A stretch of 64,000 bases of DNA from assembly GCF_041886205.1 (NCBI RefSeq), contig NZ_CP169030.1; one strand, written 5' to 3'. The notes under the pieces are model-generated. The model saw only the letters and a list, made by a program, of their open reading frames with translations. It ran no database searches and was not told the origin of the DNA. This stretch comes from Escherichia coli (lineage in GTDB: Bacteria; Pseudomonadota; Gammaproteobacteria; Enterobacterales; Enterobacteriaceae). A program made the translations under genes and the position numbers. How positions within the stretch are numbered: position 1 is the first letter of the stretch; each line of letters opens with the position of its first letter. Positions 2,513 to 38,996 of this stretch are shown piece by piece.

Positions 2513-2528
2513 TCGGGAGAGAAAAAAC

Positions 2529-3172: not shown

Positions 3173-3209
3173 GACACTCTTTTCAAAGTCAGGAGATAAG
3201 GGCACCAAG

Positions 3210-11625: not shown

Positions 11626-11650
11626 TGTCATTTTCAGAAGACGACTGCAC
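11626..11650. repeat. IRt (25-bp terminal inverted repeat at tni end of Tn402-like integron)
   Basis: TGTCATTTTCAGAAGACGACTGCAC. Confidence 0.8.
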
Positions 11651-11766
11651 CAGTTGATTGGGCGTAATGGCTGTTGTGCAGCCAGCTCCTGACAGTTCAA
11701 TATCAGAAGTGATCTGCACCAATCTCGACTATGCTCAATACTCGTGTGCACCAAAGCGAGGTGAGC

Positions 11767-13446: not shown

Positions 13447-13448
13447 CC

Positions 13449-14357
13449 GTGGACGAATATCCCATCATCGACCTGTCCCACCTGCTGCCGGCGGCCCAGG
13501 GCTTGGCCCGTCTTCCGGCGGACGAGCGCATCCAGCGCCTTCGCGCCGACCGCTGGATCGGCTATCCGCGCGCAGTCGAGGCGCTGAACCGGCTGGAAGC
13601 CCTTTATGCGTGGCCAAACAAGCAACGCATGCCCAACCTGCTGCTGGTTGGCCCGACCAACAATGGCAAGTCGATGATCGTCGAGAAGTTCCGCCGCACC
13701 CACCCGGCCAGCTCCGACGCCGACCAGGAGCACATCCCGGTGTTGGTCGTGCAGATGCCGTCCGAGCCGTCCGTGATCCGCTTCTACGTCGCGCTGCTCG
13801 CCGCGATGGGCGCGCCGCTGCGCCCACGCCCACGGTTGCCGGAAATGGAGCAACTGGCTCTGGCACTGCTGCGCAAGGTCGGCGTGCGCATGCTGGTGAT
13901 CGACGAGCTGCACAACGTGCTGGCCGGCAACAGCGTCAACCGCCGGGAATTCCTCAACCTGCTGCGCTTCCTCGGCAACGAACTGCGCATCCCGTTGGTT
14001 GGGGTAGGCACGCGCGACGCCTACCTAGCCATCCGCTCCGATGACCAGTTGGAAAATCGCTTCGAGCCGATGATGCTGCCGGTATGGGAGGCCAACGACG
14101 ATTGCTGCTCACTGCTGGCCAGCTTCGCCGCTTCGCTCCCGCTGCGCCGGCCTTCCCCAATTGCCACGCTGGACATGGCTCGCTACCTGCTCACACGCAG
14201 CGAGGGCACCATAGGGGAACTGGCGCACTTGCTGATGGCGGCGGCCATCGTCGCCGTGGAGAGCGGCGAGGAAGCGATCAACCATCGCACACTCAGCATG
14301 GCCGTTTACACCGGACCCAGCGAGCGGCGGCGGCAATTCGAGCGGGAACTGATGTGA
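13449..14357 (+). CDS. tniB: TniB NTP-binding transposition protein
   Basis: Walker A VGPTNNGKS, probable GTG start at 13449 giving MDEYPIIDL. Confidence 0.85.
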   Translation: MDEYPIIDLSHLLPAAQGLARLPADERIQRLRADRWIGYPRAVEALNRLEALYAWPNKQRMPNLLLVGPTNNGKSMIVEKFRRTHPASSDADQEHIPVLVVQMPSEPSVIRFYVALLAAMGAPLRPRPRLPEMEQLALALLRKVGVRMLVIDELHNVLAGNSVNRREFLNLLRFLGNELRIPLVGVGTRDAYLAIRSDDQLENRFEPMMLPVWEANDDCCSLLASFAASLPLRRPSPIATLDMARYLLTRSEGTIGELAHLLMAAAIVAVESGEEAINHRTLSMAVYTGPSERRRQFERELM

Positions 14358-15571
14358 AGCCTGCGCCGCGCTGGCCGCTGCATCCCGCCCCGAAAGAAGG
14401 CGAGGCGCTGTCCTCATGGCTCAACCGCGTGGCCCTTTGCTATCACATGGAGGAGCCCGACCTGCTGGAGCACGATCTTGGTCACGGCCAGGTCGATGAC
14501 CTGGACACCGCGCCACCACTCTCGCTGCTGGCGTTGCTTTCCCAGCGGAGCGGCATCGAGCTGGACCGGCTGCGCTGTATGAGTTTCGCCGGATGGGTGC
14601 CTTGGCTACTGGACAGCCTTGATGACCAGATTCCAGACGCCTTGGAAACCTATGCGTTTCAGCTCTCGGTGTTGCTGCCAAGACTCCGCCGTAAGACGCG
14701 ATCCATCACGAGCTGGCGTGCCTGGCTGCCCAGCCAGCCGATAAACCGCGCCTGTCCGCTCTGCCTGAGCGATCCGGAGAACCAAGCCGTACTGCTCGCG
14801 TGGAAGCTGCCCCTGATGCTGAGCTGCCCGCTGCATGGCTGCTGGCTGGAATCCTATTGGGGCGTGCCAGGGCGGTTTCTCGGCTGGGAGAACGCCGACG
14901 CCGAACCGCGCACCGCCAGCGACGCGATTGCGGCGATGGACCAGCGTACCTGGCAGGCACTGACAACCGGTCACGTGGAGCTGCCGCGCCGACGCATCCA
15001 CGCCGGATTGTGGTTTCGACTTCTTCGCACGCTGCTCGATGAGCTGAACACCCCGCTTTCCGCGTGCGGAACCTGCGCGGGGTATCCCCGCCAAGTCTGG
15101 GAAGGCTGCGGGCATCCGCTGCGTGCTGGGCAAAGTCTGTGGCGACCGTATGAAACCCTGAATCCGATAGTACGGTTACAGATGCTGGAGGCGGCGGCAA
15201 CGGCAATCAGCTTGATTGAGGTGAGGGACATCAGCCCGCCAGGCGAGCAGGCAAAGCTATTCTGGTCCGAGCCCCAAACCGGGTTCACCAGTGGCCTGCC
15301 GACGAAAGCGCCGAAGCCCGAGCCCATCAATCACTGGCAGCGTGCAGTCCAGGCCATCGACGAGGCCATCATTGAAGCGCGACACAACCCCGAGACGGCA
15401 CGCTCGCTGTTCGCGTTGGCTTCCTATGGTCGGCGCGATCCCGCTTCCTTGGAACGGTTGCGCGCCACCTTCGTGAAGGAAGGCATCCCGCCGGAATTTC
15501 TGTCACATTACCTGCCTGATGCACCCTTTGCATGTCTTAAACAAAATGACGGGTTAAGTGACAAATTTTGA
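14354..15571 (+). CDS. tniQ: TniQ transposition protein
   Basis: 405-aa frame starting at GTG overlapping tniB stop (VKPAPRWPLHPAPKEGEALSSWLNR); the ORF-track entry 14084-15571 is an upstream extension of this frame. Confidence 0.8.
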   Translation: MKPAPRWPLHPAPKEGEALSSWLNRVALCYHMEEPDLLEHDLGHGQVDDLDTAPPLSLLALLSQRSGIELDRLRCMSFAGWVPWLLDSLDDQIPDALETYAFQLSVLLPRLRRKTRSITSWRAWLPSQPINRACPLCLSDPENQAVLLAWKLPLMLSCPLHGCWLESYWGVPGRFLGWENADAEPRTASDAIAAMDQRTWQALTTGHVELPRRRIHAGLWFRLLRTLLDELNTPLSACGTCAGYPRQVWEGCGHPLRAGQSLWRPYETLNPIVRLQMLEAAATAISLIEVRDISPPGEQAKLFWSEPQTGFTSGLPTKAPKPEPINHWQRAVQAIDEAIIEARHNPETARSLFALASYGRRDPASLERLRATFVKEGIPPEFLSHYLPDAPFACLKQNDGLSDKF

Positions 15572-15617
15572 CGGATAGAGCTTTCCGGCTCACACTGTCA
15601 CATAATCGAACGTATAC

Positions 15618-16256
15618 GTGACGGGTGAAAAGGTGCTGATCGGCTACATGCGGGTATCGAAGGCGGACGGATCCCAGTCCACCAATTTGCAACGCGATGC
15701 GCTCATCGCCGCTGGTGTGAGCCTTGCGCACCTTTACGAGGATCTGGCCTCGGGCAGGCGCGATGATCGCCCAGGGTTGGCTGCTTGCCTGAAGGCGCTT
15801 CGTGAAGGGGACACGCTGATCGTGTGGAAGCTCGATCGGCTTGGCCGTGATCTGCGCCACCTGATCAACACCGTGCACGACCTAACTGCGCGTAGCGTGG
15901 GCCTGAAGGTCCTGACCGGTCACGGTGCGGCGGTCGACACGACGACTGCCGCCGGCAAGCTTGTGTTCGGTATTTTTGCCGCGCTGGCCGAGTTCGAGCG
16001 TGAGTTGATTTCCGAGCGAACAGTCGCTGGACTTATCTCGGCGCGCGCTCGCGGCAGGAAAGGGGGGCGCCCCTTCAAGATGACCGCCGCCAAGCTACGC
16101 CTGGCGATGGCCAGCATGGGGCAACCGGAAACCAAGGTGGGCGATCTCTGCGAAGAACTCGGGATTACCCGGCAGACGCTCTACCGGCACGTGTCGCCCA
16201 AGGGCGAACTGCGGCCAGACGGCGTAAAGCTGCTCTCCCTCGGTTCAGCCGCATAA
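15618..16256 (+). CDS. tniR: TniR/TniC serine resolvase of Tn402-like element
   Basis: Serine recombinase motifs (IGYMRVSKADGSQ; C-terminal HTH); exact start uncertain. Confidence 0.8.
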   Translation: MTGEKVLIGYMRVSKADGSQSTNLQRDALIAAGVSLAHLYEDLASGRRDDRPGLAACLKALREGDTLIVWKLDRLGRDLRHLINTVHDLTARSVGLKVLTGHGAAVDTTTAAGKLVFGIFAALAEFERELISERTVAGLISARARGRKGGRPFKMTAAKLRLAMASMGQPETKVGDLCEELGITRQTLYRHVSPKGELRPDGVKLLSLGSAA

Positions 16257-16353
16257 ATGGAGGCGACCTGGAACGGGGCGCTGTTCAGTGCGGCAACGAT
16301 CCGATTACCGGTGTCGACCCAGAGCAGCCGTAGAGCTTTTGGGAAAGCTGTCG

Positions 16354-16448
16354 TTCAACGTTTGACGTGAGGGGCCGCCGTAGCGGCGAAGCCGCGAAGG
16401 GAACCCGCAAGCGCAGCTTGTGGGCGGTCCCTCTCGACGGAATGGTTA
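16354..16448 (-). other. Probable attC recombination site of the qac gene cassette
   Basis: Minus-strand inverse core ATCTAAC (plus 16441-16448) and core GTTGAAC (plus 16354-16360) bracket ~95 bp downstream of the qac stop; boundaries approximate. Confidence 0.4.
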
Positions 16449-16460
16449 GATGCGACCGTT

Positions 16461-16793
16461 TTAGTGAACACTTGCCTTAGATAGCAAGTTGAGCACAGCA
16501 ACGCCGCTGATAATGAAGCCGACACCAACAAATCCCCACATATCTAGTTTTTGACCATGCAAAACCCATGCAATCGCAGTGACCAAGACGATCCCGAGGC
16601 CCGACCAAACTGCGTAGGCGATTCCAACAGGAATCGATTTGAGTGTCAGCGACAGGAAATAAAAAGCAGCAGCGTATCCCGCTACGACGATAAAAGACGG
16701 TACTAACCTAGTAAAGCCCTCACTAGACTTGAGCGCAGAGGTTGCAATGACCTCAAAAATAATGGCCGTAGCCAGAAATAACCAATTTTTCAA
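16461..16793 (-). CDS. Small multidrug resistance (SMR) quaternary ammonium compound efflux protein, qacH/qacL-type gene cassette
   Basis: 110-aa frame [27 protein letters not shown]... with probable TTG start; the ORF-track entry 16461-17102 is an artefactual upstream extension through attI1. Confidence 0.75.
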
Positions 16794-16888
16794 AATATTT
16801 CTCCATGGAGTTCCGCGAAGAAATTTTAGGTTCGATTTAAGAAAAAAAACAGTCTTGTTGCTGGCCGAAATTTGTGCGCACAGCAAAG

Positions 16889-16965
16889 CATCTAACTTTG
16901 TTTTAGGGCGACTGCCCTGCTGCGTAACATCGTTGCTGCTCCATAACATCAAACATCGACCCACG
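16889..16965. other. attI1 site (copy 1) with cassette junction GTTAGATGC on minus strand
   Basis: Sequence CCCTAAAACAAAGTTAGATGC (minus strand) directly upstream of intI1; boundaries approximate. Confidence 0.6.
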
Positions 16966-17031
16966 GCGTAACGCGCTTGCTGCTTGGATGCCCGAGGCAT
17001 AGACTGTACAAAAAAACAGTCATAACAAGCC

Positions 17032-18045
17032 ATGAAAACCGCCACTGCGCCGTTACCACCGCTGCGTTCGGTCAAGGTTCTGGACCAGTTGCGTGAGCGC
17101 ATACGCTACTTGCATTACAGTTTACGAACCGAACAGGCTTATGTCCACTGGGTTCGTGCCTTCATCCGTTTCCACGGTGTGCGTCACCCGGCAACCTTGG
17201 GCAGCAGCGAAGTCGAGGCATTTCTGTCCTGGCTGGCGAACGAGCGCAAGGTTTCGGTCTCCACGCATCGTCAGGCATTGGCGGCCTTGCTGTTCTTCTA
17301 CGGCAAGGTGCTGTGCACGGATCTGCCCTGGCTTCAGGAGATCGGAAGACCTCGGCCGTCGCGGCGCTTGCCGGTGGTGCTGACCCCGGATGAAGTGGTT
17401 CGCATCCTCGGTTTTCTGGAAGGCGAGCATCGTTTGTTCGCCCAGCTTCTGTATGGAACGGGCATGCGGATCAGTGAGGGTTTGCAACTGCGGGTCAAGG
17501 ATCTGGATTTCGATCACGGCACGATCATCGTGCGGGAGGGCAAGGGCTCCAAGGATCGGGCCTTGATGTTACCCGAGAGCTTGGCACCCAGCCTGCGCGA
17601 GCAGCTGTCGCGTGCACGGGCATGGTGGCTGAAGGACCAGGCCGAGGGCCGCAGCGGCGTTGCGCTTCCCGACGCCCTTGAGCGGAAGTATCCGCGCGCC
17701 GGGCATTCCTGGCCGTGGTTCTGGGTTTTTGCGCAGCACACGCATTCGACCGATCCACGGAGCGGTGTCGTGCGTCGCCATCACATGTATGACCAGACCT
17801 TTCAGCGCGCCTTCAAACGTGCCGTAGAACAAGCAGGCATCACGAAGCCCGCCACACCGCACACCCTCCGCCACTCGTTCGCGACGGCCTTGCTCCGCAG
17901 CGGTTACGACATTCGAACCGTGCAGGATCTGCTCGGCCATTCCGACGTCTCTACGACGATGATTTACACGCATGTGCTGAAAGTTGGCGGTGCCGGAGTG
18001 CGCTCACCGCTTGATGCGCTGCCGCCCCTCACTAGTGAGAGGTAG
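17032..18045 (+). CDS. intI1: Class 1 integron integrase IntI1 (copy 1)
   Basis: 337-aa tyrosine recombinase [49 protein letters not shown]... Confidence 0.95.
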
Positions 18046-18222
18046 GGCAGCGCAAGTCAATCCTGGCGGATTCACTACCCCTGCGCGAAGGCCATCGGTG
18101 CCGCATCGAACGGCCGGTTGCGGAAAGTCCTCCCTGCGTCCGCTGATGGCCGGCAGCAGCCCGTCGTTGCCTGATGGATCCAACCCCTCCGCTGCTATAG
18201 TGCAGTCGGCTTCTGACGTTCA

Positions 18223-18247
18223 GTGCAGCCGTCTTCTGAAAACGACA
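18223..18247. repeat. IRi (25-bp inverted repeat at intI1 end), copy 1, internal
   Basis: GTGCAGCCGTCTTCTGAAAACGACA; followed by TTTGA rather than the CGCCT seen outside IRt. Confidence 0.8.
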
Positions 18248-18329
18248 TTTGAACCGGGAACCTTCCCTTTTTGGCTAGGCGTGAAACAATGGTCATTTTC
18301 CCTATACCCAAAATGACCAGGAGGCCCGC

Positions 18330-18428
18330 ATGAAAGTCGCACGCATCTACCTGCGCGTGAGCACGGAGGAACAAGACCTAAGCCGGCAGGATGCCATCGT
18401 GGAGAGCTTAAATAAGACCGTCCCGTAA
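18330..18428 (+). pseudogene. Serine recombinase (resolvase) N-terminal fragment, truncated after ~27 codons by the 88-bp repeat
   Basis: MKVARIYLRVSTEEQDLSRQDAIVES matches the catalytic-serine N-terminus of resolvases; frame then runs into repeat sequence and stops. Confidence 0.5.
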
Positions 18429-18495
18429 ATTTCAGCCGAATCCGACAAAAAGGCGTGAAGATTTCCTTTAAATAGAGAGACCGAAGGTCATCCTT
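18408..18495. repeat. 88-bp direct repeat, copy A, flanking the tet(M) segment
   Basis: TTAAATAAGACCGTCCCGTAAATTTCAGCCGAATCCGACAAAAAGGCGTGAAGATTTCCTTTAAATAGAGAGACCGAAGGTCATCCTT, identical at 20999-21086. Confidence 0.85.
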
Positions 18496-18648
18496 TTCCT
18501 AAAAAAGGGGGGGGCCATGGTTCCAAGATGTAAAATCGAGGGCTAATTCAGGCTATACTTGAACTATCCTTAATGGAATCTTTAGCCAGCGGTATCAACG
18601 AAGCAAGAAACATCGAAGACTAATTAAAAGAATCCATACATAACGGAA

Positions 18649-18693
18649 AGAGCCGATAAAATGAGATTGTATTAATCTCATTTTATCGGCTCT
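18649..18693. terminator. Long perfect hairpin (19-bp stem) at the 3' end of the small ORF downstream of tet(M)
   Basis: AGAGCCGATAAAATGAGATT-gtat-TAATCTCATTTTATCGGCTCT. Confidence 0.45.
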
Positions 18694-18850
18694 GCGTCTT
18701 TGCGTCTGGCTCTGTAATCGCAGTTACTTTGAACTGCTTTATTTCAATTAAATTTTCTTGTCTGCATTTCGGACAATAGAGGGGGAATTTTTTTAATTCA
18801 GTATCTTCCCTTATCTTTAATCGTGTTTTATTTCCACATACAGGACACAA
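18683..18850 (-). CDS. Small Cys-rich zinc-ribbon-like protein (~55 aa), Tn916 orf6-like, downstream of tet(M)
   Basis: Minus-strand frame CPVCGNKTRLKIREDTELKKFPLYCPKCRQENLIEIKQFKVTAITEPDAKTQSR with TTG/GTG start; below ORF-track length cutoff. Confidence 0.4.
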   Translation of the reverse strand: MCPVCGNKTRLKIREDTELKKFPLYCPKCRQENLIEIKQFKVTAITEPDAKTQSR

Positions 18851-18968
18851 TATCCACTTGTAGTTTATAATAACTATCTCCTCCTTTACACTTTAATTCA
18901 AATCTTTATTAAAAAATATTTCATCTTATTTAACAAGAAACCATATTTATATAACAACATAAAATACA

Positions 18969-20888
18969 CTAAGTTATTTTATTGAACATATATCGTACTT
19001 TATCTATCCGACTATTTGGACGACGGGGCTGGCAAACAGGTTCACCGGTAGTAACATGGTACCCTTTTAACTCTGTTAAACAAACACTACGTCCATTTGT
19101 AAAGAAAGTTAAATCACTACGATATTCTTGAATACACCGAGCAGGGATTTCTCCACTAAGAATGACCTCATTATTTTTCAATTGAGTGTCTACGATGTTC
19201 GCACAATATTTAGGAGCATCGTTGTATGCTCGTGAAAGATATTCCTGTGGCGCATAAATTTTAAAACTAAGATATGGCTCTAACAATTCTGTTCCAGCTT
19301 TTTTTAAGACTTGTTCCAATACAATAGGAGCAAGCATCCGAAAATCTGCTGGGGTACTAACAGGGCTATAGTATAAGCCATACTTAAAACAGATTTTACA
19401 GTCCGTCACATTCCAACCATACAATCCTTGTTCACAGCCATAGCGTATCCCTTCCATAACTGCATTTTGAAATGATTGATTTAAGTATCCAAGAGAAACC
19501 GAGCTCTCATACTGCATTCCACTTCCCAACGGAAGCGGTGATACAGATAAACCAATGGAAGCCCAGAAAGGATTTGGCGGCACTTCGATGTGAATGGTAT
19601 ATTCTGCATTTTTTAACGGTCTCTCCATATAAATGACTGTAGGCTCTTTTAGTTCTATCTCCACATGATACTTTTCTTGCAACAGTGCACTAATCACTTC
19701 CATTTGTACTTTCCCTAAGAAAGAAAGTATAATTTCATGTGTCGTAGAATCCACGTAATATCGTAGAAGCGGATCACTATCTGAGATTTCCAAAAGGGCA
19801 TCAAGCAACATTTCTCTCTGTTCAGGTTTACTCGGTTCAACAGTTGTTTGTAGTAGAGGGTGCGGATTTTCAATCTTTTTTCTCTGTGGCAATAGTTTTG
19901 TATCTCCAAGAACACTATTTAACTTCAAAAACTCATTTTGCAAAATAACAATTTCCCCGGAATAAGCCTTATCGATTTTACATAATTCACCATTTATTGA
20001 AGTATACATTTCTGTAATTTTTATTTTTTCCTTTTCCGATATTCTAACCGAATCTCGCAAATGCAGTACGCCACTATAAAGACGTATATATGCAAGACGT
20101 TGTCTTTTTTTTGTATATTCAATTTTGAAAACATTTCCGCAAAGTTCAGACTGACCTCGATGTGTTGATGAATAAAATTTATTCGTAATCACTTCTATAA
20201 GGTTATCAATCCCTATATTGTTTTTTGCACTTCCATGATAAAGAGGGAACAGAGAACAATTCTGAAATCTTATGCTTTCCTCTTGTTCGAGTTCCAATGC
20301 TTCTAATGATTTACCGGACATATATTTCTCTAAAAGGTCATCGTTTCCCTCTATTACCGTATCCCATTGTTCAGATTCGGTAAAGTTCGTCACACACATA
20401 TTAGGATACAGTTCTACCTTCTGTTTGATTACAATTTCGGCAGAAAGTTTCTCTTTAATATCCTGATAAACCGTTGATAAATCAATTCCATTTTGGTCAA
20501 TCTTATTGATAAAAAAGATTGTGGGAATCCCCATTTTCCTAAGTGCATGAAATAATATACGAGTTTGTGCTTGTACGCCATCTTTTGCAGAAATCAGTAG
20601 AATTGCCCCATCTAAAACTGATAATGAACGATATACTTCTGCTAAGAAATCCATATGTCCTGGCGTGTCTATGATGTTCACCTTCGTATTTTCCCACTGA
20701 AAAGAGGTTATTCCTGTCTGAATTGTAATTCCTCTCTGACGTTCTAAAAGCGTATTATCCGTCCTCGTTGTACCTTTGTCCACGCTTCCTAATTCTGTAA
20801 TCGCTCCACTGTTATATAATAAGCTTTCTGTTAAGGTAGTTTTTCCCGCATCAACATGAGCTAAAACTCCAATATTAATAATTTTCAT
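18969..20888 (-). CDS. tet(M): Tetracycline resistance ribosomal protection protein Tet(M)
   Basis: 639 aa starting [30 protein letters not shown] (translational GTPase motifs); the ORF-track frame begins 5 codons upstream. Confidence 0.95.
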
Positions 20889-20903
20889 GTGATTTTCCTC
20901 CAT

Positions 20904-20990
20904 TCAAAAGCCCAAAAGGGCATAAAAATCCCAGTGATAAATACTCTTATCACTGGGATTTTTATGCATAACCATAGGCATACAAAGCAT
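20904..20990 (-). CDS. tet(M) leader peptide (28 aa) of the transcriptional attenuator
   Basis: MLCMPMVMHKNPSDKSIYHWDFYALLGF immediately upstream of tet(M), as in Tn916. Confidence 0.7.
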   Translation of the reverse strand: MLCMPMVMHKNPSDKSIYHWDFYALLGF

Positions 20991-20998
20991 ACAGATAT

Positions 20999-21086
20999 TT
21001 AAATAAGACCGTCCCGTAAATTTCAGCCGAATCCGACAAAAAGGCGTGAAGATTTCCTTTAAATAGAGAGACCGAAGGTCATCCTT
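20999..21086. repeat. 88-bp direct repeat, copy B, flanking the tet(M) segment
   Basis: Identical to 18408-18495, same orientation. Confidence 0.85.
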
Positions 21087-21134
21087 GAAGAAGGAGTCCT
21101 CGGTGAGATTCAGAATGCCGAACACCGTCACCCT
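21087..21134 (-). pseudogene. sul1: sul1 5' fragment (codons ~2-17 only), joined on one side to the 88-bp repeat and on the other to truncated attI1
   Basis: Minus strand reads (V)TVFGILNLTEDSFF, the N-terminus of Sul1 dihydropteroate synthase, lacking its ATG and everything after codon ~17. Confidence 0.7.
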
Positions 21135-21200
21135 GCTGCGTAACATCGTTGCTGCTCCATAACATCAAACATCGACCCACGGCGTAACGCGCTTGCTGCT
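21133..21200. other. attI1 (copy 2), truncated: lacks the GTTAGATGC crossover end
   Basis: Sequence identical to copy 1 from CCCTGCTGCGTAACATCG onward, but the cassette-proximal ~25 bp are replaced by the sul1 fragment. Confidence 0.6.
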
Positions 21201-21247
21201 TGGATGCCCGAGGCATAGACTGTACAAAAAAACAGTCATAACAAGCC

Positions 21248-22261
21248 ATGAAAACCGCCACTGCGCCGTTACCACCGCTGCGTTCGGTCAAGGTTCTGGA
21301 CCAGTTGCGTGAGCGCATACGCTACTTGCATTACAGCTTACGAACCGAACAGGCTTATGTCCACTGGGTTCGTGCCTTCATCCGTTTCCACGGTGTGCGT
21401 CACCCGGCAACCTTGGGCAGCAGCGAAGTCGAGGCATTTCTGTCCTGGCTGGCGAACGAGCGCAAGGTTTCGGTCTCCACGCATCGTCAGGCATTGGCGG
21501 CCTTGCTGTTCTTCTACGGCAAGGTGCTGTGCACGGATCTGCCCTGGCTTCAGGAGATCGGAAGACCTCGGCCGTCGCGGCGCTTGCCGGTGGTGCTGAC
21601 CCCGGATGAAGTGGTTCGCATCCTCGGTTTTCTGGAAGGCGAGCATCGTTTGTTCGCCCAGCTTCTGTATGGAACGGGCATGCGGATCAGTGAGGGTTTG
21701 CAACTGCGGGTCAAGGATCTGGATTTCGATCACGGCACGATCATCGTGCGGGAGGGCAAGGGCTCCAAGGATCGGGCCTTGATGTTACCCGAGAGCTTGG
21801 CACCCAGCCTGCGCGAGCAGCTGTCGCGTGCACGGGCATGGTGGCTGAAGGACCAGGCCGAGGGCCGCAGCGGCGTTGCGCTTCCCGACGCCCTTGAGCG
21901 GAAGTATCCGCGCGCCGGGCATTCCTGGCCGTGGTTCTGGGTTTTTGCGCAGCACACGCATTCGACCGATCCACGGAGCGGTGTCGTGCGTCGCCATCAC
22001 ATGTATGACCAGACCTTTCAGCGCGCCTTCAAACGTGCCGTAGAACAAGCAGGCATCACGAAGCCCGCCACACCGCACACCCTCCGCCACTCGTTCGCGA
22101 CGGCCTTGCTCCGCAGCGGTTACGACATTCGAACCGTGCAGGATCTGCTCGGCCATTCCGACGTCTCTACGACGATGATTTACACGCATGTGCTGAAAGT
22201 TGGCGGTGCCGGAGTGCGCTCACCGCTTGATGCGCTGCCGCCCCTCACTAGTGAGAGGTAG
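21248..22261 (+). CDS. intI1: Class 1 integron integrase IntI1 (copy 2, identical protein)
   Basis: Identical 337-aa translation to copy 1; one silent nucleotide difference noted. Confidence 0.95.
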
Positions 22262-22438
22262 GGCAGCGCAAGTCAATCCTGGCGGATTCACTACCCCTGC
22301 GCGAAGGCCATCGGTGCCGCATCGAACGGCCGGTTGCGGAAAGTCCTCCCTGCGTCCGCTGATGGCCGGCAGCAGCCCGTCGTTGCCTGATGGATCCAAC
22401 CCCTCCGCTGCTATAGTGCAGTCGGCTTCTGACGTTCA

Positions 22439-22463
22439 GTGCAGCCGTCTTCTGAAAACGACA
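22439..22463. repeat. IRi, copy 2 (outer end of integron), followed by CGCCT target duplication
   Basis: GTGCAGCCGTCTTCTGAAAACGACA then CGCCT at 22464-22468. Confidence 0.8.
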
Positions 22464-22485
22464 CGCCTTCAACCAAGGAGACATC

Positions 22486-23046
22486 GTGCAGGGGCACCGC
22501 ATCGGCTACGTCCGGGTCAGCAGCTTTGACCAGAACCCGGAACGCCAGCTGGAACAAACCCAGGTGAGCAAGGTGTTCACCGACAAGGCATCGGGCAAGG
22601 ACACCCAGCGCCCCCAGCTCGAAGCGCTGCTGAGCTTCGTCCGCGAAGGCGATACAGTGGTGGTGCACAGCATGGATCGGCTGGCCCGCAACCTCGATGA
22701 CCTGCGTCGCTTGGTACAGAAGCTGACTCAGCGCGGCGTGCGCATCGAGTTCCTGAAGGAGGGCCTGGTGTTCACTGGCGAGGACTCGCCGATGGCCAAC
22801 CTGATGCTGTCGGTGATGGGGGCCTTCGCTGAGTTCGAGCGCGCCCTGATCCGCGAGCGGCAGCGTGAGGGCATCGCCTTGGCCAAGCAGCGTGGCGCGT
22901 ACCGGGGCCGCAAGAAAGCCCTGTCCGATGAGCAGGCTGCTACCCTGCGGCAGCGAGCGACGGCCGGCGAGCCCAAGGCGCAGCTTGCCCGCGAGTTCAA
23001 CATCAGCCGGGAAACCCTCTACCAGTACCTCCGCACGGACGACTGA
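22486..23046 (+). CDS. tnpR: TnpR resolvase (Tn21/Tn1721 subfamily)
   Basis: 186-aa serine recombinase MQGHRIGYVRVSSFDQNPERQ... Confidence 0.9.
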   Translation: MQGHRIGYVRVSSFDQNPERQLEQTQVSKVFTDKASGKDTQRPQLEALLSFVREGDTVVVHSMDRLARNLDDLRRLVQKLTQRGVRIEFLKEGLVFTGEDSPMANLMLSVMGAFAEFERALIRERQREGIALAKQRGAYRGRKKALSDEQAATLRQRATAGEPKAQLAREFNISRETLYQYLRTDD

Positions 23047-23049
23047 CAC

Positions 23050-26016
23050 ATGCCGCGTCGCTTGATCCTCTCGGCCACGGAGCGGGACACCCTGCTTGCG
23101 CTGCCGGAAAGCCAGGATGACCTGATCCGCTACTACACCTTCAACGACTCCGACCTGTCGCTGATCCGCCAGCGACGCGGCGACGCCAACCGCCTCGGCT
23201 TCGCCGTGCAGCTCTGCCTGCTGCGCTACCCCGGTTACGCGCTGGGAACCGACAGCGAGCTGCCCGAGCCGGTCATCCTGTGGGTGGCGAAGCAAGTCCA
23301 GGCCGAGCCGGCGAGCTGGGCAAAGTACGGCGAGCGCGACGTGACCCGTCGCGAGCATGCCCAGGAACTGCGCACCTACCTGCAACTGGCCCCGTTCGGC
23401 CTGTCCGACTTCCGCGCCCTGGTGCGCGAGCTAACCGAGCTGGCCCAGCAGACCGACAAAGGCTTGCTGCTGGCCGGTCAGGCCCTGGAGAGCCTACGGC
23501 AGAAACGACGCATCCTGCCGGCGCTGAGCGTGATTGACCGGGCCTGCTCGGAAGCCATTGCGCGAGCCAATCGGCGGGTCTACCGCGCCCTGGTCGAACC
23601 ACTCACGGACTCGCATCGGGCCAAGCTGGACGAGCTGTTGAAGCTCAAGGCCGGCAGCAGCATCACCTGGTTGACCTGGCTGCGCCAGGCACCGCTGAAA
23701 CCCAACTCTCGGCACATGCTGGAACACATCGAGCGGCTGAAGACATTTCAGTTGGTGGACTTGCCCGAAGGCCTGGGCCGGCACATCCACCAGAACCGCC
23801 TGCTCAAGCTGGCCCGCGAGGGTGGGCAGATGACGCCCAAAGACCTCGGTAAGTTCGAGCCGCAGCGCCGCTACGCGACCCTGGCCGCCGTGGTGCTGGA
23901 GAGCACCGCGACCGTGATCGATGAGCTGGTCGATCTGCATGACCGCATCCTGGTCAAGCTGTTCAGCGGCGCGAAGCACAAGCATCAGCAGCAGTTCCAG
24001 AAGCAGGGCAAGGCGATCAACGACAAGGTGCGCCTGTACTCCAGGATCGGCCAGGCGCTGCTGGAAGCGAAGGAAAGCGGCAGCGACCCCTATGCCGCCA
24101 TCGAGGCGGTGATTCCCTGGGACGAGTTCACCGAGAGCGTCAGCGAGGCCGAGCTGCTGGCCCGGCCGGAAGGCTTCGACCACCTGCACCTGGTCGGCGA
24201 GAACTTCGCCACCCTGCGCCGTTACACGCCGGCCTTGCTGGAGGTGCTGGAACTGCGCGCCGCGCCGGCCGCGCAAGGCGTGCTGGCAGCCGTGCAGACC
24301 CTGCGTGAGATGAACGCCGACAACCTGCGCAAGGTGCCGGCCGATGCACCCACGGCCTTCATCAAGCCGCGCTGGAAGCCGCTGGTGATCACCCCGGAAG
24401 GCCTCGACCGGAAATTCTACGAAATCTGCGCCCTGTCCGAGCTGAAGAACGCCCTGCGCTCCGGCGACATCTGGGTCAAGGGCTCGCGGCAGTTCCGCGA
24501 CTTCGACGACTACCTGCTGCCGGCCGAGAAGTTCGCCGCACTCAAGCGCGAGCAGGCCCTGCCCCTGGCGATCAACCCGAACAGCGACCAGTACCTGGAA
24601 GAGCGTTTGCAGCTGCTGGACGAGCAGTTGGCCACCGTCACCCGCCTGGCCAAGGACAACGAGCTGCCCGATGCCATCCTCACCGAGTCAGGGCTGAAAA
24701 TCACCCCGCTGGATGCGGCGGTGCCGGATCGGGCGCAGGCGCTGATCGACCAAACCAGCCAGTTACTGCCGCGCATCAAGATCACCGAACTGCTGATGGA
24801 CGTGGACGACTGGACGGGCTTCAGCCGCCACTTCACCCACTTGAAGGACGGGGCCGAGGCCAAAGACAGGACGTTGCTGCTGTCCGCAATCCTCGGTGAT
24901 GCGATCAACCTCGGGCTGACCAAGATGGCCGAGTCGAGCCCCGGCCTGACCTACGCCAAGCTGTCCTGGCTGCAAGCCTGGCACATCCGCGACGAAACCT
25001 ATTCGGCGGCCTTGGCCGAGCTGGTCAACCACCAGTATCGCCACGCCTTTGCCGCCCACTGGGGCGACGGCACGACCTCATCCTCCGATGGCCAGCGCTT
25101 CCGCGCGGGTGGCCGGGGCGAGAGCACCGGGCACGTCAACCCGAAGTACGGTAGCGAGCCGGGACGGCTGTTCTATACCCATATCTCCGACCAGTACGCG
25201 CCGTTCAGCACCCGCGTGGTGAATGTCGGCGTCCGCGATTCCACCTATGTGCTCGACGGCCTGCTGTACCACGAGTCCGACCTGCGGATCGAGGAGCACT
25301 ACACCGACACGGCCGGCTTCACCGATCACGTCTTTGCCCTGATGCACCTGCTAGGCTTCCGCTTCGCGCCGCGCATCCGCGACCTCGGCGAAACCAAGCT
25401 GTACGTGCCGCAGGGCGTGCAAGCCTACCCGACGTTGCGCCCGCTGATCGGCGGCACCCTGAACATCAAGCACGTGCGTGCCCACTGGGACGACATCCTG
25501 CGCCTGGCCAGCTCGATCAAGCAGGGCACCGTCACCGCCTCGCTGATGCTGCGCAAGCTCGGCAGCTACCCGCGCCAGAACGGACTGGCCGTGGCCCTGC
25601 GCGAGCTGGGCCGGATCGAGCGCACGCTGTTCATCCTGGACTGGCTGCAAAGTGTTGAACTGCGCCGCCGCGTGCATGCCGGCCTGAACAAAGGTGAGGC
25701 GCGCAACTCGCTGGCCAGGGCGGTGTTCTTCAACCGCCTTGGGGAAATCAGGGATCGGAGCTTCGAGCAGCAGCGCTACCGGGCCAGCGGCCTCAACCTG
25801 GTGACGGCGGCTATCGTGCTGTGGAACACGGTGTACCTGGAACGCGCCACCCAGGGGTTGGTCGAGGCCGGCAAGCCGGTGGACGGCGAGCTGCTGCAAT
25901 TCCTGTCGCCGCTGGGCTGGGAGCACATCAACCTAACCGGCGATTACGTCTGGCGGCAGAGCCGCAGACTGGAAGACGGGAAGTTTCGGCCCTTACGGAT
26001 GCCCGGAAAACCTTAG
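23050..26016 (+). CDS. tnpA: TnpA transposase (Tn3 family, Tn21/Tn1721 subfamily)
   Basis: 988-aa ORF ending inside the terminal inverted repeat. Confidence 0.9.
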
Positions 26017-31470: not shown

Positions 31471-31650
31471 TGCGATTCTCCGGAGAAGGCTGGGATATTT
31501 ACATTAAATCAACATGCTGTCAGAAGAAAGCACTAAGTAGAGAATGGCGCGCATAACAAAACAACCGACAGGTTGACTTTTCAGAATAGGGGCAGTTTGG
31601 TGATCGTCACCAGTATATGCAGCGTCAGCTGCATGGAAGGCGGCACGCTG

Positions 31651-31707
31651 TGGTTACATGTGATACCGGAGTAAAACCGCCGAAGCCCGGCGTAAGCCGG
31701 TACGGAT
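31651..31707. repeat. Copy 2 of the ~55-bp imperfect direct repeat
   Basis: GGTTACATGTGATACCGGAGTAAAACCGCCGAAGCCCGGCGTAAGCCGGTACGG, compare 9466-9520. Confidence 0.5.
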
Positions 31708-32254
31708 TGACAGATTTCACCTTACCCATCCCTTGCCCTGCCAGACCATACCTGCTTTCAGCCATGACAGAGCTTTTGTGCGCGGTCGGAGTGGTCCCGA
31801 CGAGGGTTTACCCGAAGTCGGGGCGTATCTCCGCGTTAGCGGGCCATCAGGGCCGCTTACGAGCGTGTACTCAATACTTCCAGCGAGAAGACTGACAGCG
31901 ATGAAGATGTAGTTACAACATTCATAATTAAAAGCGACTCTGTTCCGGCCCTTTGGGCCGGGGCGGGGCCGCTTTTCAGTTATGAGGGTGGGGCTTTGTG
32001 GTTTCGGTTCTGCGCTGGACCGGGGTTTTTCTTGGTGGTTCTGTTTGTGTGTTGTAACTAAAGTGGCTCCGGTCGGGGCCCGCCGCTTGCGGTGGGAGGT
32101 GCATATCTGTCTGTCCACAGGACAGGCAGTGAATAGGTTTTCTTTTTAAATGAATGTAATTAAGTAGTTTAAAGGAGATATAAACAGGTGTTTAAAAGAT
32201 ACATTGCACCCTGTAAGGCTGGCGGCTGGCGCTTTATGACATGAACGGTTGTAA

Positions 32255-32262
32255 CCTTATGA
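32255..32262. repeat. 8-bp target-site duplication (CCTTATGA), left copy, of the IS66-family insertion
   Basis: Same octamer at 34963-34970. Confidence 0.6.
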
Positions 32263-32293
32263 AGTAAGCGACTCGTCAGAACCGTATTGATAT

Positions 32294-33865
32294 TTACTGA
32301 GAGCTCAGATCAACTTTCCAGGGCAACAGATCGCGTACCCGGTTTGCCGGCCAGTCCTGGATATGTTCAATGACGTAACGCAGCCACTTTTCTGGCTCCA
32401 CATTGTTCAGACGGCATGTGCCGATCAGCGAGTACAACACCGCCGCATGTTCACCACCGCTGTCGGAACCCGCGAACATCCAGTTTTTCCGGCCTACGGC
32501 CACTCCCCGTAAGGCGTTCTCTGCGATGTTGTTGTCGATTTCCACCCAGCCATTACTGCAGTACACGTTCAGTGCATCCCACTGTTTCAGCAGGTATGCG
32601 AACGCTTTTGCCGTATCTGAGTGACGCGACAGTGTTTTCATCTGTTGCTGTATCCAGTCATACAGTGACTGCATCAGTGGCGCGGCTCTGGCTTTTCTTG
32701 CCGCCAGACGCTGTTCTGCTGAACAGCCCCGGACCTCTGCCTCGATGGCATACAGTTCACCGATACGCTGCAGGGCTTCCGTGGTGATGTAGGTGGACGC
32801 TCTTGCATGCACATCGTGGATTTTTCTCCGGGCATGAGCCATACACGCGGCTTCCGTTATTCTGCCGGATTCGTATAACGCCCGGTAACCACCGTAAGCA
32901 TCGGCCTGAAGCACACCGCTGTAACCGGCCAGGTGATTTTGTGGATGGATACCTTTCCGGTCCGGACTGTACGCGAACCAGACCGCCGGGGGCATCTGTG
33001 AACCGGCGTTACGGTCATCACGGACGTAGACCCACAGCCGGGCTGTCCGGGTTTTACCGCTGCCCGGCTCCTGGACCGGGACGGGGATATCATCAGCATG
33101 GACTTTACCGGGCATCAGCACATACTGGCGCAGGACGTCATACAGCGGCTCCAGCAGTTCAGCAACAGCACCTGTCCAGCGCCCCAGTGTGGCACGGCTC
33201 AGCTCCACTCCCTGACGACGGTATATTTCTGACTGGCGGTATAACGGCAGATGGTCTGCATATTTCCCGGTGACAACATGGGCCAGAAGCCCCGCTCCGG
33301 CATAACTGCGTGCAATGGGTTTTGAAGGTACTGGTGCCTGCACGATATGGTCGCACCGGCAACAGGCCTGTTTCGGACGTTGTGTTTCGATAACCTTAAA
33401 GGCGCTGCTGATAAGCTCCAGTTGCTCTGACACATCACATCCCAGAGAACTGAGTTCACCACCACAGGCAGGACAGCATTCCTCTTCCGGCCGGATAACC
33501 CGGGTTTCACGGGGAAGTGAGGCCGGTAACGGTTTACGGGCTGAAGACTGGCGCAGGGCGGATGGCAGTACCGGGTCATATTGCTCACCCAGCGTTTCCG
33601 CCATTTCTTCCTGAAGTGCGCTGATTCGCTCCTGTGCTTCCTGTATCTGCCGTTCGGTTTTTGCACGAAGTTTTTCTGAGCTTTTACCGAACTGCATACG
33701 TTGCAGTTTCGCAACCAGCGCCTTCAGCCGGTTGATTTCGGAAGCATAAGCCGCCACCCGCTGTGAGAGCAGGCGGTTGTATTCAGCCATCTGGCGGATG
33801 GTGTCCTGTTGCGTCTGCAACAGTGCCCGCAGGCGGGCGTTCTCATGAGCAAGTGAGGTGTCCAT
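32294..33865 (-). CDS. tnpC: IS66-family transposase TnpC
   Basis: 523 aa with N-terminal leucine zipper, CxxC zinc-finger (CPACGGEL ... CRCDH) and DDE region. Confidence 0.85.
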
Positions 33866-33884
33866 ATCCTCACTTTACAACGGG

Positions 33885-34232
33885 TTATATGCGGATTCCA
33901 GCGCGTTCCGTTCGTTTCGGGTGCTTCCAGTTGATACCTTCAAGAAGCATGGATAACTGAGCCGGAGTAAGGTGCACCTTGCCGTCACGGGTGACTGGCC
34001 AGACGAAGCGGCCCCGCTCCAGGCGTTTGGTGAAGAGGCACAGTCCGTCACTGTCAGCCCACAACACTTTTATCTGGTCACCCCGGCGTCCGCGGAAGAT
34101 GAACAGGTGTCCGGAGAACGGGTCATCCTTCAGGACGTTCTGAACTTTTGATGCCAGGCCGTTAAAGCCATTTCGCATATCGGTGATACCTGCAACCAGC
34201 CAGATACGCGAACCTGCAGGGAGAGATATCAT
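33885..34232 (-). CDS. tnpB: IS66-family accessory protein TnpB (Orf2)
   Basis: 115 aa typical IS66 Orf2. Confidence 0.8.
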   Translation of the reverse strand: MISLPAGSRIWLVAGITDMRNGFNGLASKVQNVLKDDPFSGHLFIFRGRRGDQIKVLWADSDGLCLFTKRLERGRFVWPVTRDGKVHLTPAQLSMLLEGINWKHPKRTERAGIRI

Positions 34233-34879
34233 CAGTGGCTGCTCCCTTTTATTTCGCGGATAAGTGTCTGTAATAACGCCGGCGTCAGTTTACCTTTAAG
34301 CCTGAGAGTTCCGGCCGGCAGAACCAGCTCACAACACAGACTGTCGGACGGTGTATTTATCTGCTCTGGTTCCTGTGCGGGGGCCGGGATTTTATTATCC
34401 GGCTCCGGCGTTAACGTCACGGGAAGCAGTGCCGGCATATTTTTTCCGGAAGGCAGCAGGCCACCTTTCCGGTATTGATGGCGCCAGTTGAAGAGCAGGT
34501 TATCGTTGATTCCGTTTTCCCGGGCGATCTGCGCCACACAGGCTCCGGGCTGCAGTGACTGCTCCACTAAGGCGATTTTAAACTCATAAGGGAAGTTGGG
34601 CCGCCGGGGACGTTTTTTTACCACGGGGGCTTCGGATATAACGGTGCTTTCAGGACGTACGACTGGTACCGTGGAAAATTGTCCGTAAAGGCAGGCATCA
34701 AGTTCCTGCTCCGACATGCCTGCGGGCAAAGGCCACGAAAGGCCAGCTCTCCGAAAGCGCACGAACATACTACAAACTGTTGATTTTGGTACACCCAGGC
34801 GACGCCCGGCCACAACCCGGGGTAAATGTTCTTCAAAGTGAAGACGTAAAGCTTCAGTGATCCAGGTCCGGTGTTTCAT
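34232..34879 (-). CDS. tnpA: IS66-family accessory protein TnpA (Orf1, HTH)
   Basis: Frame 34232-34909; probable start at MKHRTWITEALRLHFE. Confidence 0.7.
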   Translation of the reverse strand: MKHRTWITEALRLHFEEHLPRVVAGRRLGVPKSTVCSMFVRFRRAGLSWPLPAGMSEQELDACLYGQFSTVPVVRPESTVISEAPVVKKRPRRPNFPYEFKIALVEQSLQPGACVAQIARENGINDNLLFNWRHQYRKGGLLPSGKNMPALLPVTLTPEPDNKIPAPAQEPEQINTPSDSLCCELVLPAGTLRLKGKLTPALLQTLIREIKGSSH

Positions 34880-34962
34880 ACGATAGTGTCCATTAAAAAT
34901 GATGGACATTATTTTTGTAGAGCCGGAGGAAACAGACCAGACGGTTTAAATGAGCCGGTTAC

Positions 34963-34970
34963 CCTTATGA
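34963..34970. repeat. 8-bp target-site duplication (CCTTATGA), right copy
   Basis: Matches 32255-32262. Confidence 0.6.
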
Positions 34971-34990
34971 GGAAGTCCCTTGCAGTTAAA

Positions 34991-34999
34991 TGTGGATAA
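34991..34999. promoter_or_regulatory. DnaA box (TTATCCACA on minus strand) of the IncFII-type origin region downstream of repA1
   Basis: Consensus 9-mer about 175 bp downstream of the repA1 stop. Confidence 0.5.
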
Positions 35000-35174
35000 G
35001 CAAAATTCCTCGTCTGTGAGGCGTGTTTTGTATCAAAAACAGGAGGGACCGGATGCACCTGAAGGTGGATGATGAGGTTGTTTTTTGTATGCGGTGCTGT
35101 TTTTTTGTTCGCCGACAGGCTTCAGGCGTGCAGATGCCTCCGGTGCGGGCCGGATTATTCAGAGGAGGTCACTT

Positions 35175-36032
35175 TCAGGGGGAATCTGTGGCCAGCCGGC
35201 TGTAATTACGGTTACGTGACAGAATCATGCGCTCTTTCACACGACGCTCCACTTCGCGTTTTACCGCCTCACGATTGGCAGTGAAGCGCCCTTCCGAGAT
35301 TTCACGCGTCAGCTGCCGTTTCACCAGGGTGACGATATCCTGACGTTCCCTGTTCGCATCACGACGCGCACGGGCACGTTTTATTCCACGGGACTTAAGC
35401 TCTGTCTGGTAACTGCGGAAACGCTCACGCACAAAACGCCAGGCTTTCGCTATCAGTTCATCCATACCCAGGGTATCCAGTCCCTGCTTTTTGCGCTGTC
35501 TGTTTTCCCATTCAACACGACTGCGGCGCGCAGCAACCACTGCATCCTCAGACACATCAAGGGCGGCAAATAGCGCCGGTGTGAACGTGATATCGGTCGG
35601 AATGTAGCACCCGATAAGCGGATCATATTCCGTCTGGTAGGTAATCAGTCCCAGCTCTGCAAGGAACGTCAAGGCTCGGGTGGCCCGGGTGATGGAGAGT
35701 TTTCCGGCAGCAGACTCCGTCGCCAGTCCGCACTCAATGGCCAGCGTAGTGATGGAGCACTGGACGCGGTTGGCCAGCGGGTCATAGTGAAAACACAGCC
35801 CCTGCAGCAGCGCATCAATAGCCCGGCGACGCAGTACCGGTGGCATGCGCCGACGCAGTCCCTTCGAACGAGCATGTGCCACATGAATGGCGAAATCAAA
35901 ACGGGAGGTGAAGCCCACCGCCTTTTCCATCAGTTTTTCGCAGAACTTCAGCGTTCCGGCACCTTCACGGGGTGTGAACACCGGATTCGGGTTTTTAACC
36001 TGTGAATAGTATTTTTGAAGGAGATCAGCCAT
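35175..36032 (-). CDS. repA1: IncFII replication initiator RepA1
   Basis: 285-aa protein [41 protein letters not shown]...; ORF-track frame extends 13 codons upstream. Confidence 0.9.
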
Positions 36033-36108
36033 GTCCCCCTCCAACACTATTCCCCCTCCTACGGGCGGCAACTAGCTCGTCTGGGCCGACACGTAAAGTT
36101 TCGAACAT
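36025..36108 (-). CDS. Probable tap/repA6 leader peptide translationally coupled to repA1
   Basis: Short frame [27 protein letters not shown] terminating just inside the repA1 start, as for IncFII leader peptides. Confidence 0.35.
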
Positions 36109-36807
36109 ATCTGGTCTGAACCAGATGGTTCCTCCATCAAAAGCGATGAGATGAAGATCATTATCAAGAGTTTTGAGGGCTCTCCAAACACGAGTGTATG
36201 AACCTCCACTACAAACTGAAAGCTCTTTAACAGATAAGTTAACTTTGTTCGTATCAGGGATGTAGTGTGCGCACATTACTTGTACGAGGGAAACATAAAA
36301 ACTAACCATCGACGCGCTGATTTTATTTTTACGTTTGCCATGCGCTATTACAAGCAAACCTCTGATGAAGATCAGATGCTTGAAGGAGTCAAAATGAGCC
36401 CTTTTCTGGAGAAGGCTGCAAAACAGGTGAGGATACTTGCTGGAATCAATGTGAAGATCTGATTCAATCCCACCCGCTATTACTGAATGTGTTTCATGAT
36501 TAGCCACACCATCCTGCACTTACAATGCACAGAAGGAGTGAGCACAGAAAGAAGTCTTGAACTTTTCCGGGCATATAACTATACTCCCCGCATAGCTGAA
36601 TTGTTGGCTATACGGTTTAAGTGGATCCCGGTAATCTTCTCCTCGTCGCCAAACTAGATGAAGATTATCGGGGTTTTTGCTTTTCTGGCTCCTGTAAATC
36701 CACATCAGAACCAGTTCCCTGCCACCTTATGGCGTGGCCAGCCACAAAATTCCTTAAACGATCAGCAATCTATCACTCACGCCTGAGATAAGCAAGAATG
36801 TGAATAT

Positions 36808-37065
36808 TTACAAAGTCGCTCTGCGTTTCAGCTCTGATTCAATCAGTTTTTCAAGCATCTGCGCCTGGGTAATACCTTCCTCATCTGCCAGTTCACTCAG
36901 CCTGTCTTTTAACCGGGCCTGGATAACCGCATGAAAAGCCTTATGAGTGTTGCTTCTGCGAGCTAGAGAAGCCCTTTGCCTCTCTCTGGCCGGAACAGGG
37001 TTACCTTTCCGGTATGCACGCTTGTTACCTGATGAGGAAGTCACTGCATTTTCTGTCTGCGACAT
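36808..37065 (-). CDS. repA2: CopB/RepA2 transcriptional repressor of repA1
   Basis: 85 aa starting [11 protein letters not shown] with EGITQAQ motif, typical CopB. Confidence 0.75.
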
Positions 37066-38210: not shown

Positions 38211-38996
38211 GCATGAGTTGTTCCCCAAAAGGATTTTGGGGGTGTTAAAAATAGTTTACATTTCCAGTTAAGATTCAGTGCGAAACACTTTTCCCGCAAG
38301 TATCTGTGTGCCACAAATTATATTAATCAGAGTCTTATGGGGTTCAACTTATTCAAACCGTAAGTTTCTGCACAGACTTTCCTGCTGGCCCAGTACACGA
38401 ACAACCTGCCCATAAATATCTGCAGACAATACCGGCTATGAAAAGATAAATAATACCAGTGGAATATATTCCCTCATGTTATTCTCCATATCAAATAAAT
38501 GGCACCTGTATTTCAGGCATCCTGAATATTGCAGCACACATTGAATAACACCTTATTTTGTGAAATAAATCACAAAATATAAAATCACGACTTAATACGA
38601 AAAAAAACTCTGTGCTACTCAGAATTGTCCGGTCATACTACCCGACCGGAGATTAAAAAAGTAAATCTCATGCATTATTCAGCCTTCTGACTCCTGGAGT
38701 AATGAAGGCTGCTTTTTTCGTTACACCTTTCCCCGGCAGCCCGTCGCCATGCTTCTGCCGCTTCCATCCAGCGTCCACTGATCTCCAGAATAACGGCCCG
38801 GCTTCCGGCACGCTGCCAGCGCCAGACCTGACCGTTCCGTGAACTGTTTCTGAATCCATTCATTTTTCTGCCCCTCCCTTTTAGTCGTCAGTATTATTGT
38901 GGTAAATAATTCAGTGGACTGGCTTCCTTTCGGGTACGGAAGTTATTTCCTTTTAAGCCTTATTTCCCTGCCTCCTCTCTCTGATGGAGGCTTTTT

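Follow-up and report, generated by a model that had tools for sequence, protein, structure and literature searches.

The replication origin of the IncFII-type replicon in a 64,000-nucleotide stretch of Escherichia coli plasmid DNA (contig NZ_CP169030.1 of assembly GCF_041886205.1; hereafter, the window) is interrupted by an insertion sequence (IS) of the IS66 family, ISCro1, which separates the DnaA box and a short adjoining stub from the remainder of oriR by 2.7 kb. We consider it probable that this ordinary insertion has left the origin inactive or crippled, with replication of the plasmid relying on a replicon that lies outside the window. The FII/FIC replicon that typing would report is probably not the one replicating this plasmid, and predictions of copy number, host range and incompatibility should rest on the other replicon, although the FII incompatibility mediated by CopA may persist.

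As a single event the insertion is ordinary, and of a known type, in which a mobile element silences a secondary IncFII-like replicon of a multireplicon F plasmid; recurrent, possibly targeted hits on FII origins are a modestly interesting lead. That at least 12 independent ISCro1 insertions fall within 223 bp suggests either that an IS66-family element prefers an active plasmid origin as its target, or that silencing of one of the origins in multireplicon F plasmids has been selected repeatedly. Little is understood of how IS66-family elements choose their targets, and the repA-oriR interval offers a convenient natural hot spot for its study.

ISCro1 and its insertion site

The segment singled out in the initial annotation, 32255-35174, comprises the IS together with the repA-proximal origin stub and the spacer up to repA1. 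The IS was described there as an intact IS66-family element flanked by an 8-bp duplication; the open reading frames (ORFs), their Pfam domains and the flanking sequence bear this description out, an extra A at 32263 having been overlooked. From left to right, the features are:

32255-32262: left copy of the target-site duplication, CCTTATGA, with the extra A adjoining it at 32263
32264-34962, minus strand: ISCro1-like IS66-family insertion sequence of 2,699 bp, with the tnpC-distal inverted repeat at 32264 and the tnpA-proximal one at 34962
32294-33865, minus strand: tnpC, DDE transposase, ORF of 523 amino acids (aa), Pfam DDE_Tnp_IS66 (E=8.7e-103)
33885-34232, minus strand: tnpB, IS66 accessory protein, ORF of 115 aa, annotated as IS66 TnpB in relatives
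34232-34909, minus strand: tnpA, helix-turn-helix accessory protein, ORF of 225 aa, Pfam HTH_Tnp_1
34963-34970: right copy of the target-site duplication, CCTTATGA

The three genes follow one another in the order tnpA-tnpB-tnpC, all on the minus strand, as expected of the IS66 family, and the tnpC product also matches the zf-IS66, LZ_Tnp_IS66 and C-terminal IS66 domains in Pfam. GTAAGCG at 32264 and CCGGTTAC at 34962 form the two ends of the element; its terminal inverted repeats are imperfect (GTAAGCGACTCGTCAGAACCG versus GTAACCGGCTCATTTAAACCG) and start with GTAA, a further family trait. Over all 2,699 bp it is 99.9% identical at the nucleotide level to copies annotated by NCBI as ‘ISCro1 family’ in 10 other plasmids, and its length equals that published for ISCro1 (PMC12115866); the name used here rests on these annotated copies and the published length. 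TnpA is identical to the copy in NZ_CP041415.1, TnpB to copies in two other plasmids (NZ_CP041415.1 among them), and TnpC differs from other ISCro1 copies by a single amino acid. Because all three proteins are intact and identical or nearly identical to other copies, the element is intact and presumably competent for transposition. The ISCro1 copy of pT28R-1 shares the length of 2,699 bp, the 8-bp target duplication and the same three proteins, but lies in an IncHI1 backbone, at TAACCTTT; the study describing it treats ISCro1 only as a recombination substrate, and does not comment on the copy beside the FII origin of pT28R-2 (PMC12115866).

The 8-bp duplication is typical of IS66-family insertions, CCTTATGA being found on both flanks of the element and in single copy in the empty site. 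In NZ_CP083264.1, the closest uninterrupted relative (99.3% identity over 293 bp), the empty site reads AACCTTATGAGGAAG, and the sequence restored across the target in the window, GTTGTAACCTTATGAGGAAGTCCC, is identical to that of NZ_CP083264.1. In silico deletion of 32263-34970 produces DNA that is colinear, without rearrangement, with both R100 and the uninterrupted relative CP063715.1, in an alignment that begins at the end of repA1, takes in the DnaA box and continues ~700 bp past it. Because the excised sequence is colinear with these plasmids and the empty site is identical in NZ_CP083264.1, the arrangement is a true simple insertion and not a chance repeat.

IS copies are a classic source of misassembly, and the exact junction in the window has no match in PLSDB or in 5,426 complete E. 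coli genomes in RefSeq; matches covering at least 80% of the junction query are all in two pieces, and in each the IS has a different offset from that in the window. That the assembler misplaced an IS copy, making the arrangement an artefact or chimera, is nevertheless extremely improbable: a matching 8-bp duplication of a single-copy target stands at both junctions, the flanks rejoin perfectly into known origin sequence, and twelve analogous insertions with clean duplications are found in independent assemblies.

The lone extra A at 32263, between the left duplication and the IS end, constitutes a small junction anomaly. It is present neither in the empty site nor at any other ISCro1 junction examined, the 8-bp duplications of other ISCro1 copies adjoining the IS ends exactly, and may reflect imprecise joining or a later mutation.

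Geometry and activity of the split origin

The replicon has the gene order copB-copA-tap-repA1-CIS-oriR of the R100 (NR1)/R1 basic replicon, with a CopA RNA, a tap gene and a RepA of the same family; its DnaA box lies equally far from repA1, and the restored oriR and downstream region are colinear with, and ~95% identical to, those of R100/R1. It differs from the R100/R1 replicon in the 2.7-kb IS that splits oriR, an extra ORF of 160 aa between tap and repA1 and a different RepA N-terminus, and the window's relatives are typed as IncFIC by MOB-suite in PLSDB. The parts of the origin region are now distributed as follows:

35000-35174, minus strand: CIS spacer between repA1 and oriR, intact by alignment with R100; ISCro1 has entered it independently six more times, in other plasmids
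34971-34999, minus strand: repA-proximal oriR stub of ~29 bp by alignment with R100, including the DnaA box TTATCCACA at 34991-34999
32104-32262, minus strand: displaced major part of oriR, ~159 bp, colinear with R100, the far boundary being approximate
31600-32103, minus strand: R100-colinear sequence downstream of oriR, with GC-rich palindromes and the repA4 region

Measured from the repA1 stop codon (35175-35177), the DnaA box lies 176-184 nt and the target 8-mer 205-212 nt downstream, the target thus falling 21-28 bp beyond the box, in agreement with the initial annotation, which had placed the insertion about 210 bp from repA1 and 20-30 bp from the DnaA box. That annotation had also suggested that the AT-rich and palindromic sequence on the far side of the IS might be the rest of oriR, and had proposed an alignment with R100 as a check. 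After in silico excision, ~31600-32262 does prove to be the R100-colinear continuation of oriR and its downstream region, and the insertion lies inside, not outside, the minimal oriR of R1/R100, so that the origin is indeed split by 2.7 kb, with ~29 bp remaining beside repA and ~159 bp displaced. A contiguous oriR of the IncFII type, in which the DnaA box, a RepA-binding stretch and AT-rich 9-mers follow ~175 bp downstream of repA, is not found: no oriR part is missing, and once the IS is excised all of them align colinearly with R100, but 2.7 kb now separates them, with the break 20 bp after the DnaA box. Masai, in 1983, reportedly placed the beginning of oriR at the DnaA box. The division into ~29 and ~159 bp assumes a 188-bp oriR with this start point. 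The oriR1 of R1 measures 188 bp and contains a consensus DnaA box (PMC5883639). Within the displaced part lie three TCNTTTAAA 9-mers (32145-32153, 32168-32176 and 32191-32199) on the repA strand with a spacing of 23 bp; in a motif scan of the window, 9-mers of this type gave 7 matches versus 1.35 expected.

Most probably, ISCro1 transposed in the normal manner, with duplication of its 8-bp target, into an IncFII oriR, 21-28 bp past the DnaA box. The box and ~20 bp of adjoining DNA remain beside repA1 and CIS, and the other ~159 bp, with the three AT-rich 9-mers (the presumed helix-opening site) and, probably, the bulk of the RepA-binding stretch, now lies 2.7 kb away. Since the break would fall within the stretch that RepA must occupy, and the 9-mers now lie 2.7 kb off, an origin complex of the R1 type should fail to assemble, leaving the split origin most likely inactive or severely crippled. 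The genes copB, copA, tap and repA1 are intact, and their expression probably continues; in that case the plasmid would keep its FII-type (CopA) incompatibility and would still type as FII/FIC. A second replicon, located beyond the window, would drive replication, RepFIB and/or RepFIA being the likeliest to judge from relatives.

DnaA binding requires RepA bound directly downstream of the DnaA box (PMC5883639). The initial annotation had asked whether the split origin is functional or whether the plasmid depends on another replicon, and the comparative evidence favours a probable dependence on another replicon. All of the other plasmids with ISCro1 in the repA-oriR interval (12/12) are typed IncFIB-positive; the annotation of pSTEC719_4 contains a RepB-family (RepFIB) initiator gene, plus repE and sopAB, and that of pT28R-2 a RepB-family initiator gene. 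In pEM76, pRKI3099b and pA68_p1 no repA is annotated beside ISCro1, indicating that the FII replicon is not needed by those plasmids. The repA side of ISCro1 is replaced in these three by unrelated DNA or IS26, which suggests that IS-adjacent deletions removed the FII repA after insertion.

Alternatively, the origin may still work, perhaps in weakened form, with RepA from the intact repA1 loading on the displaced ~159 bp even though the DnaA box is missing there, and the IS doing no more than lengthen the distance from repA and CIS to the origin. Scrambling of the oriR DnaA box leaves R1 derivatives able to replicate, and raised the copy number of MiniR1-1, the box being dispensable and DnaA-free replication of R1 possible in vivo (PMC5883639); loss of the box alone would thus not kill the origin. 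The displaced part is moreover undamaged and retains all three 9-mers, and repA1 and its control elements are intact. RepA, however, acts in cis, close to its own gene, and every plasmid found with ISCro1 in the interval also has RepFIB, none carrying an interrupted FII replicon alone. In pEC958, which replicates from RepFII, the RepFII oriV does not tolerate transposon insertions, saturating mutagenesis having shown that the oriV region, copA, repA6, repA1 and repA4 are required for maintenance (PMC4398462). In view of these observations we regard a working origin as unlikely.

Several points, the dispensability of the DnaA box among them, nonetheless weigh against an inactive origin. The second replicon would lie outside the window, and we infer it from relatives only; the MOB-suite labels used in typing are imperfect, R100 itself being labelled ‘IncFIA’; and the exact map of RepA contacts on oriR and the start of oriR at the DnaA box, both assumed in this reading, are weak points. 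A candidate counter-example with FII as its only replicon, pT28R-2, published as F18:A-:B- (PMC12115866), was rejected, as NZ_CP049355.1 starts (1-978) with a RepB-family initiator of the RepFIB type. The published type of pT28R-2 and the ‘IncFIA’ given to R100 by MOB-suite in PLSDB illustrate that replicon labels need to be checked against sequence.

The F plasmid carries an IncFII-like secondary replicon, RepFIC, whose genes are disrupted by Tn1000, F being kept by another replicon. In contrast to RepFIC, the genes here are intact and only the origin is split, by an IS66-family agent that hits the origin region recurrently.

Recurrent ISCro1 insertions between repA1 and oriR

Junction queries in both orientations, followed by mapping of the flanks, recovered 12 independent ISCro1 events at 10 positions within 223 bp, in both orientations and with two 8-mers reused in opposite orientations; the main caveat is that these searches were centred on the repA-oriR interval, and the density of ISCro1 elsewhere is not measurable from them. 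The events, with the duplicated 8-mer or junction of each, are listed by position in window coordinates of the restored sequence (+, orientation as in the window), together with a thirteenth outside the 223-bp interval:

32157-64, +: TAATTAAG, in oriR, CP101952.1
32167-74, +: GTTTAAAG, in oriR, NZ_CP146652.1
32190-97, -: GTTTAAAA, in oriR, CP101970.1
32255-62, +: CCTTATGA, in oriR, present window
32255-62, -: CCTTATGG, in oriR, p14406-FII (NZ_MN823988.1)
34979-86, -: CTTGCAGT, in oriR, CP057791.1
35012-19, +: GTCTGTGA, in the CIS spacer, pYSP8-1-CTX-M-14, pT28R-2 and ~25 more records (E. coli, Klebsiella, Salmonella, Shigella)
near 35050, +: junction in the CIS spacer, CP142530.1
35058-65, +: CCTGAAGG, in the CIS spacer, pSTEC719_4
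35058-65, -: CCTGAAGG, in the CIS spacer, NZ_CP104631.1
35086, +: junction in the CIS spacer, pEM76
35087, +: junction in the CIS spacer, pRKI3099b, with an IS variant only 94% identical
35429-36: GCACAAAA, inside repA1, NZ_CP141845.1, the thirteenth event

An apparent restriction to a single orientation was rejected as a product of query design, the opposite-orientation query having given four further events; the resulting split over 13 events (9:4) is not significant. Also discarded were NZ_CP135713.1, a false joined match whose IS lies elsewhere, and plasmids of the H21/H22 type as origin carriers, pGN4554-3 (the one checked) having its ISCro1 between hok and finO.

A close parallel to the window is p14406-FII, in which ISCro1 occupies the same 8-bp oriR target in a related FII/FIC replicon that also has the extra ORF. 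The orientation of the IS is opposite there, the target ends in a different base, and its duplication is clean, without the extra A, which together mark an independent event. The group of pYSP8-1-CTX-M-14 and pT28R-2 (~27 PLSDB records) has the same IS in the same orientation and interval, but the IS entered at GTCTGTGA (35012-35019), 13-20 bp from the DnaA box in the direction of repA, so that oriR is whole there, though parted from repA and CIS. Full-text searches pairing ISCro1 or IS66 with repA, an FII replicon or a replication origin gave no description of the recurrent oriR insertions.

Near-identical plasmids of Shiga toxin-producing E. coli from goats in Shandong, all from one study (NZ_CP041415.1, CP101970.1, CP101952.1 and CP101958.1), provide a closely matched comparison. 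CP101958.1 is IS-free and measures 82,741 bp; its three siblings, of ~85.4 kb, have gained one ISCro1 each, at three different sites and in differing orientations, all within the CIS-oriR interval. With the IS excised, the siblings are 99.98-100% identical to CP101958.1 over 4.8-8.2 kb. Under uniform insertion over 82.7 kb, the chance of two further hits in the same ~230 bp would be ~1e-5 by our own arithmetic.

We tentatively propose, short of regarding it as established, that ISCro1 strongly prefers the repA-proximal CIS-oriR segment of IncFII-type replicons and acts as a recurrent, semi-specific ‘origin killer’ of FII in FII+FIB plasmids. If so, it would silence the FII replicon of such plasmids while leaving their typing and incompatibility genes intact. 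A possible reason for the preference is bending or melting of the CIS-oriR DNA, or the presence on it of RepA acting in cis.

The same distribution could arise without any target preference if insertions were random and those silencing a redundant FII origin in FII+FIB plasmids were kept by selection, the gain being a lower copy number or cost, or the avoidance of two active origins. All carriers do have a second replicon, and ISCro1 is found at unrelated sites as well (the leading region of pCT, the hok-finO gap of pGN4554-3, and others). Among 4,380 RefSeq E. coli records with the origin region, 4,229 have it intact and 151 do not, and ISCro1 in the + orientation alone explains only ~20 of these 151, other causes of breakage therefore existing. 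Insertions in repA1 (858 bp), however, would silence the replicon equally, yet only one of the 13 events is in repA1 (part of which was covered) versus 12 in 223 bp. The three goat siblings, each with a single ISCro1 in the interval at sites and in orientations of their own, and the use of two 8-mers twice in opposite orientations likewise argue against selection among random insertions, an explanation that we find rather doubtful.

There is no consensus among the duplicated 8-mers, which argues against a simple sequence rule. The tnpA-proximal inverted repeat contains, at 34945-34953, TCATTTAAA, the same 9-mer that is present three times in the AT-rich part of oriR (32145-32199). This likeness was rejected as the feature that attracts the IS, the motif being found within 200 bp at none of five non-origin ISCro1 sites (0/5), and it is at most a local contributor. 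A general targeting of origins by ISCro1 is not supported, the copy in the IncK plasmid pCT lying in the leading region. Bernander et al. reportedly mapped, in 1992, the leading-strand start of R1 to ~400 bp beyond oriR. That the insertions mark a unidirectional replication terminus was rejected by reasoning, as hits occur both on the repA side and within oriR.

Remainder of the replicon and of the window

The rest of the replicon is of the IncFII type, with a RepA of the IncFII_repA family and CopA RNA, tap and CopB upstream of repA, and its subtype is ‘IncFIC/F18-like’ within the R100/R1-type IncFII replicons:

35175-36032, minus strand: repA1, IncFII-family initiator, intact, 285 aa, Pfam IncFII_repA (PF02387, E=6e-26)
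36025-36507 or 36025-36519, minus strand: extra ORF between tap and repA1, 160-164 aa, sharing bases with the stop codon of tap and the start codon of repA1
36500-36574, minus strand: tap, RepA leader peptide, intact, 24 aa by translation
36592-36682, plus strand: CopA antisense RNA gene, Rfam RF00042, 99.4 bits, full length
36808-37065, minus strand: copB/repA2 repressor, ORF of 85 aa, annotated as ‘replication regulatory protein RepA’ in relatives

The extra ORF starts with a GTG at the tap stop codon, where repA normally begins, and ends in ATGGCTGA, overlapping the start of repA1. Its product belongs to no Pfam family and shares 34% identity with RepA1 in the winged-helix core of the latter (E=3e-9); ~507 PLSDB records contain the ORF, and R100 and CP063715.1 lack it. 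It looks like a 5' remnant of a divergent repA that may now relay translational coupling from tap to repA1.

No second initiator gene was found in the parts of the window that were checked, a check that was not exhaustive: the ORFs at 231-1004 and 6083-6673 have no Pfam match, and ~9700-24000 was judged only by the annotation of close relatives. Positions 1-31500 contain defence and toxin genes, Tn3-family and integron resistance modules, tet genes and tcuRABC, and 37200-64000 contain hok/sok, finO, and traX-traI onward. At the left end lie genes for a TIR-domain protein of the CAP12/Pycsar effector type (1054-1953), a PIN-domain toxin (2756-3172) and a 712-aa AAA_13/ABC-like ATPase (3334-5472), the genes of 1054-5472 being probable defence or toxin-antitoxin cargo. 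Between sok and finO, 38642-38754 on the plus strand matches the Rfam family AS-pc02 (antisense to pHK01_099) with 87 bits.

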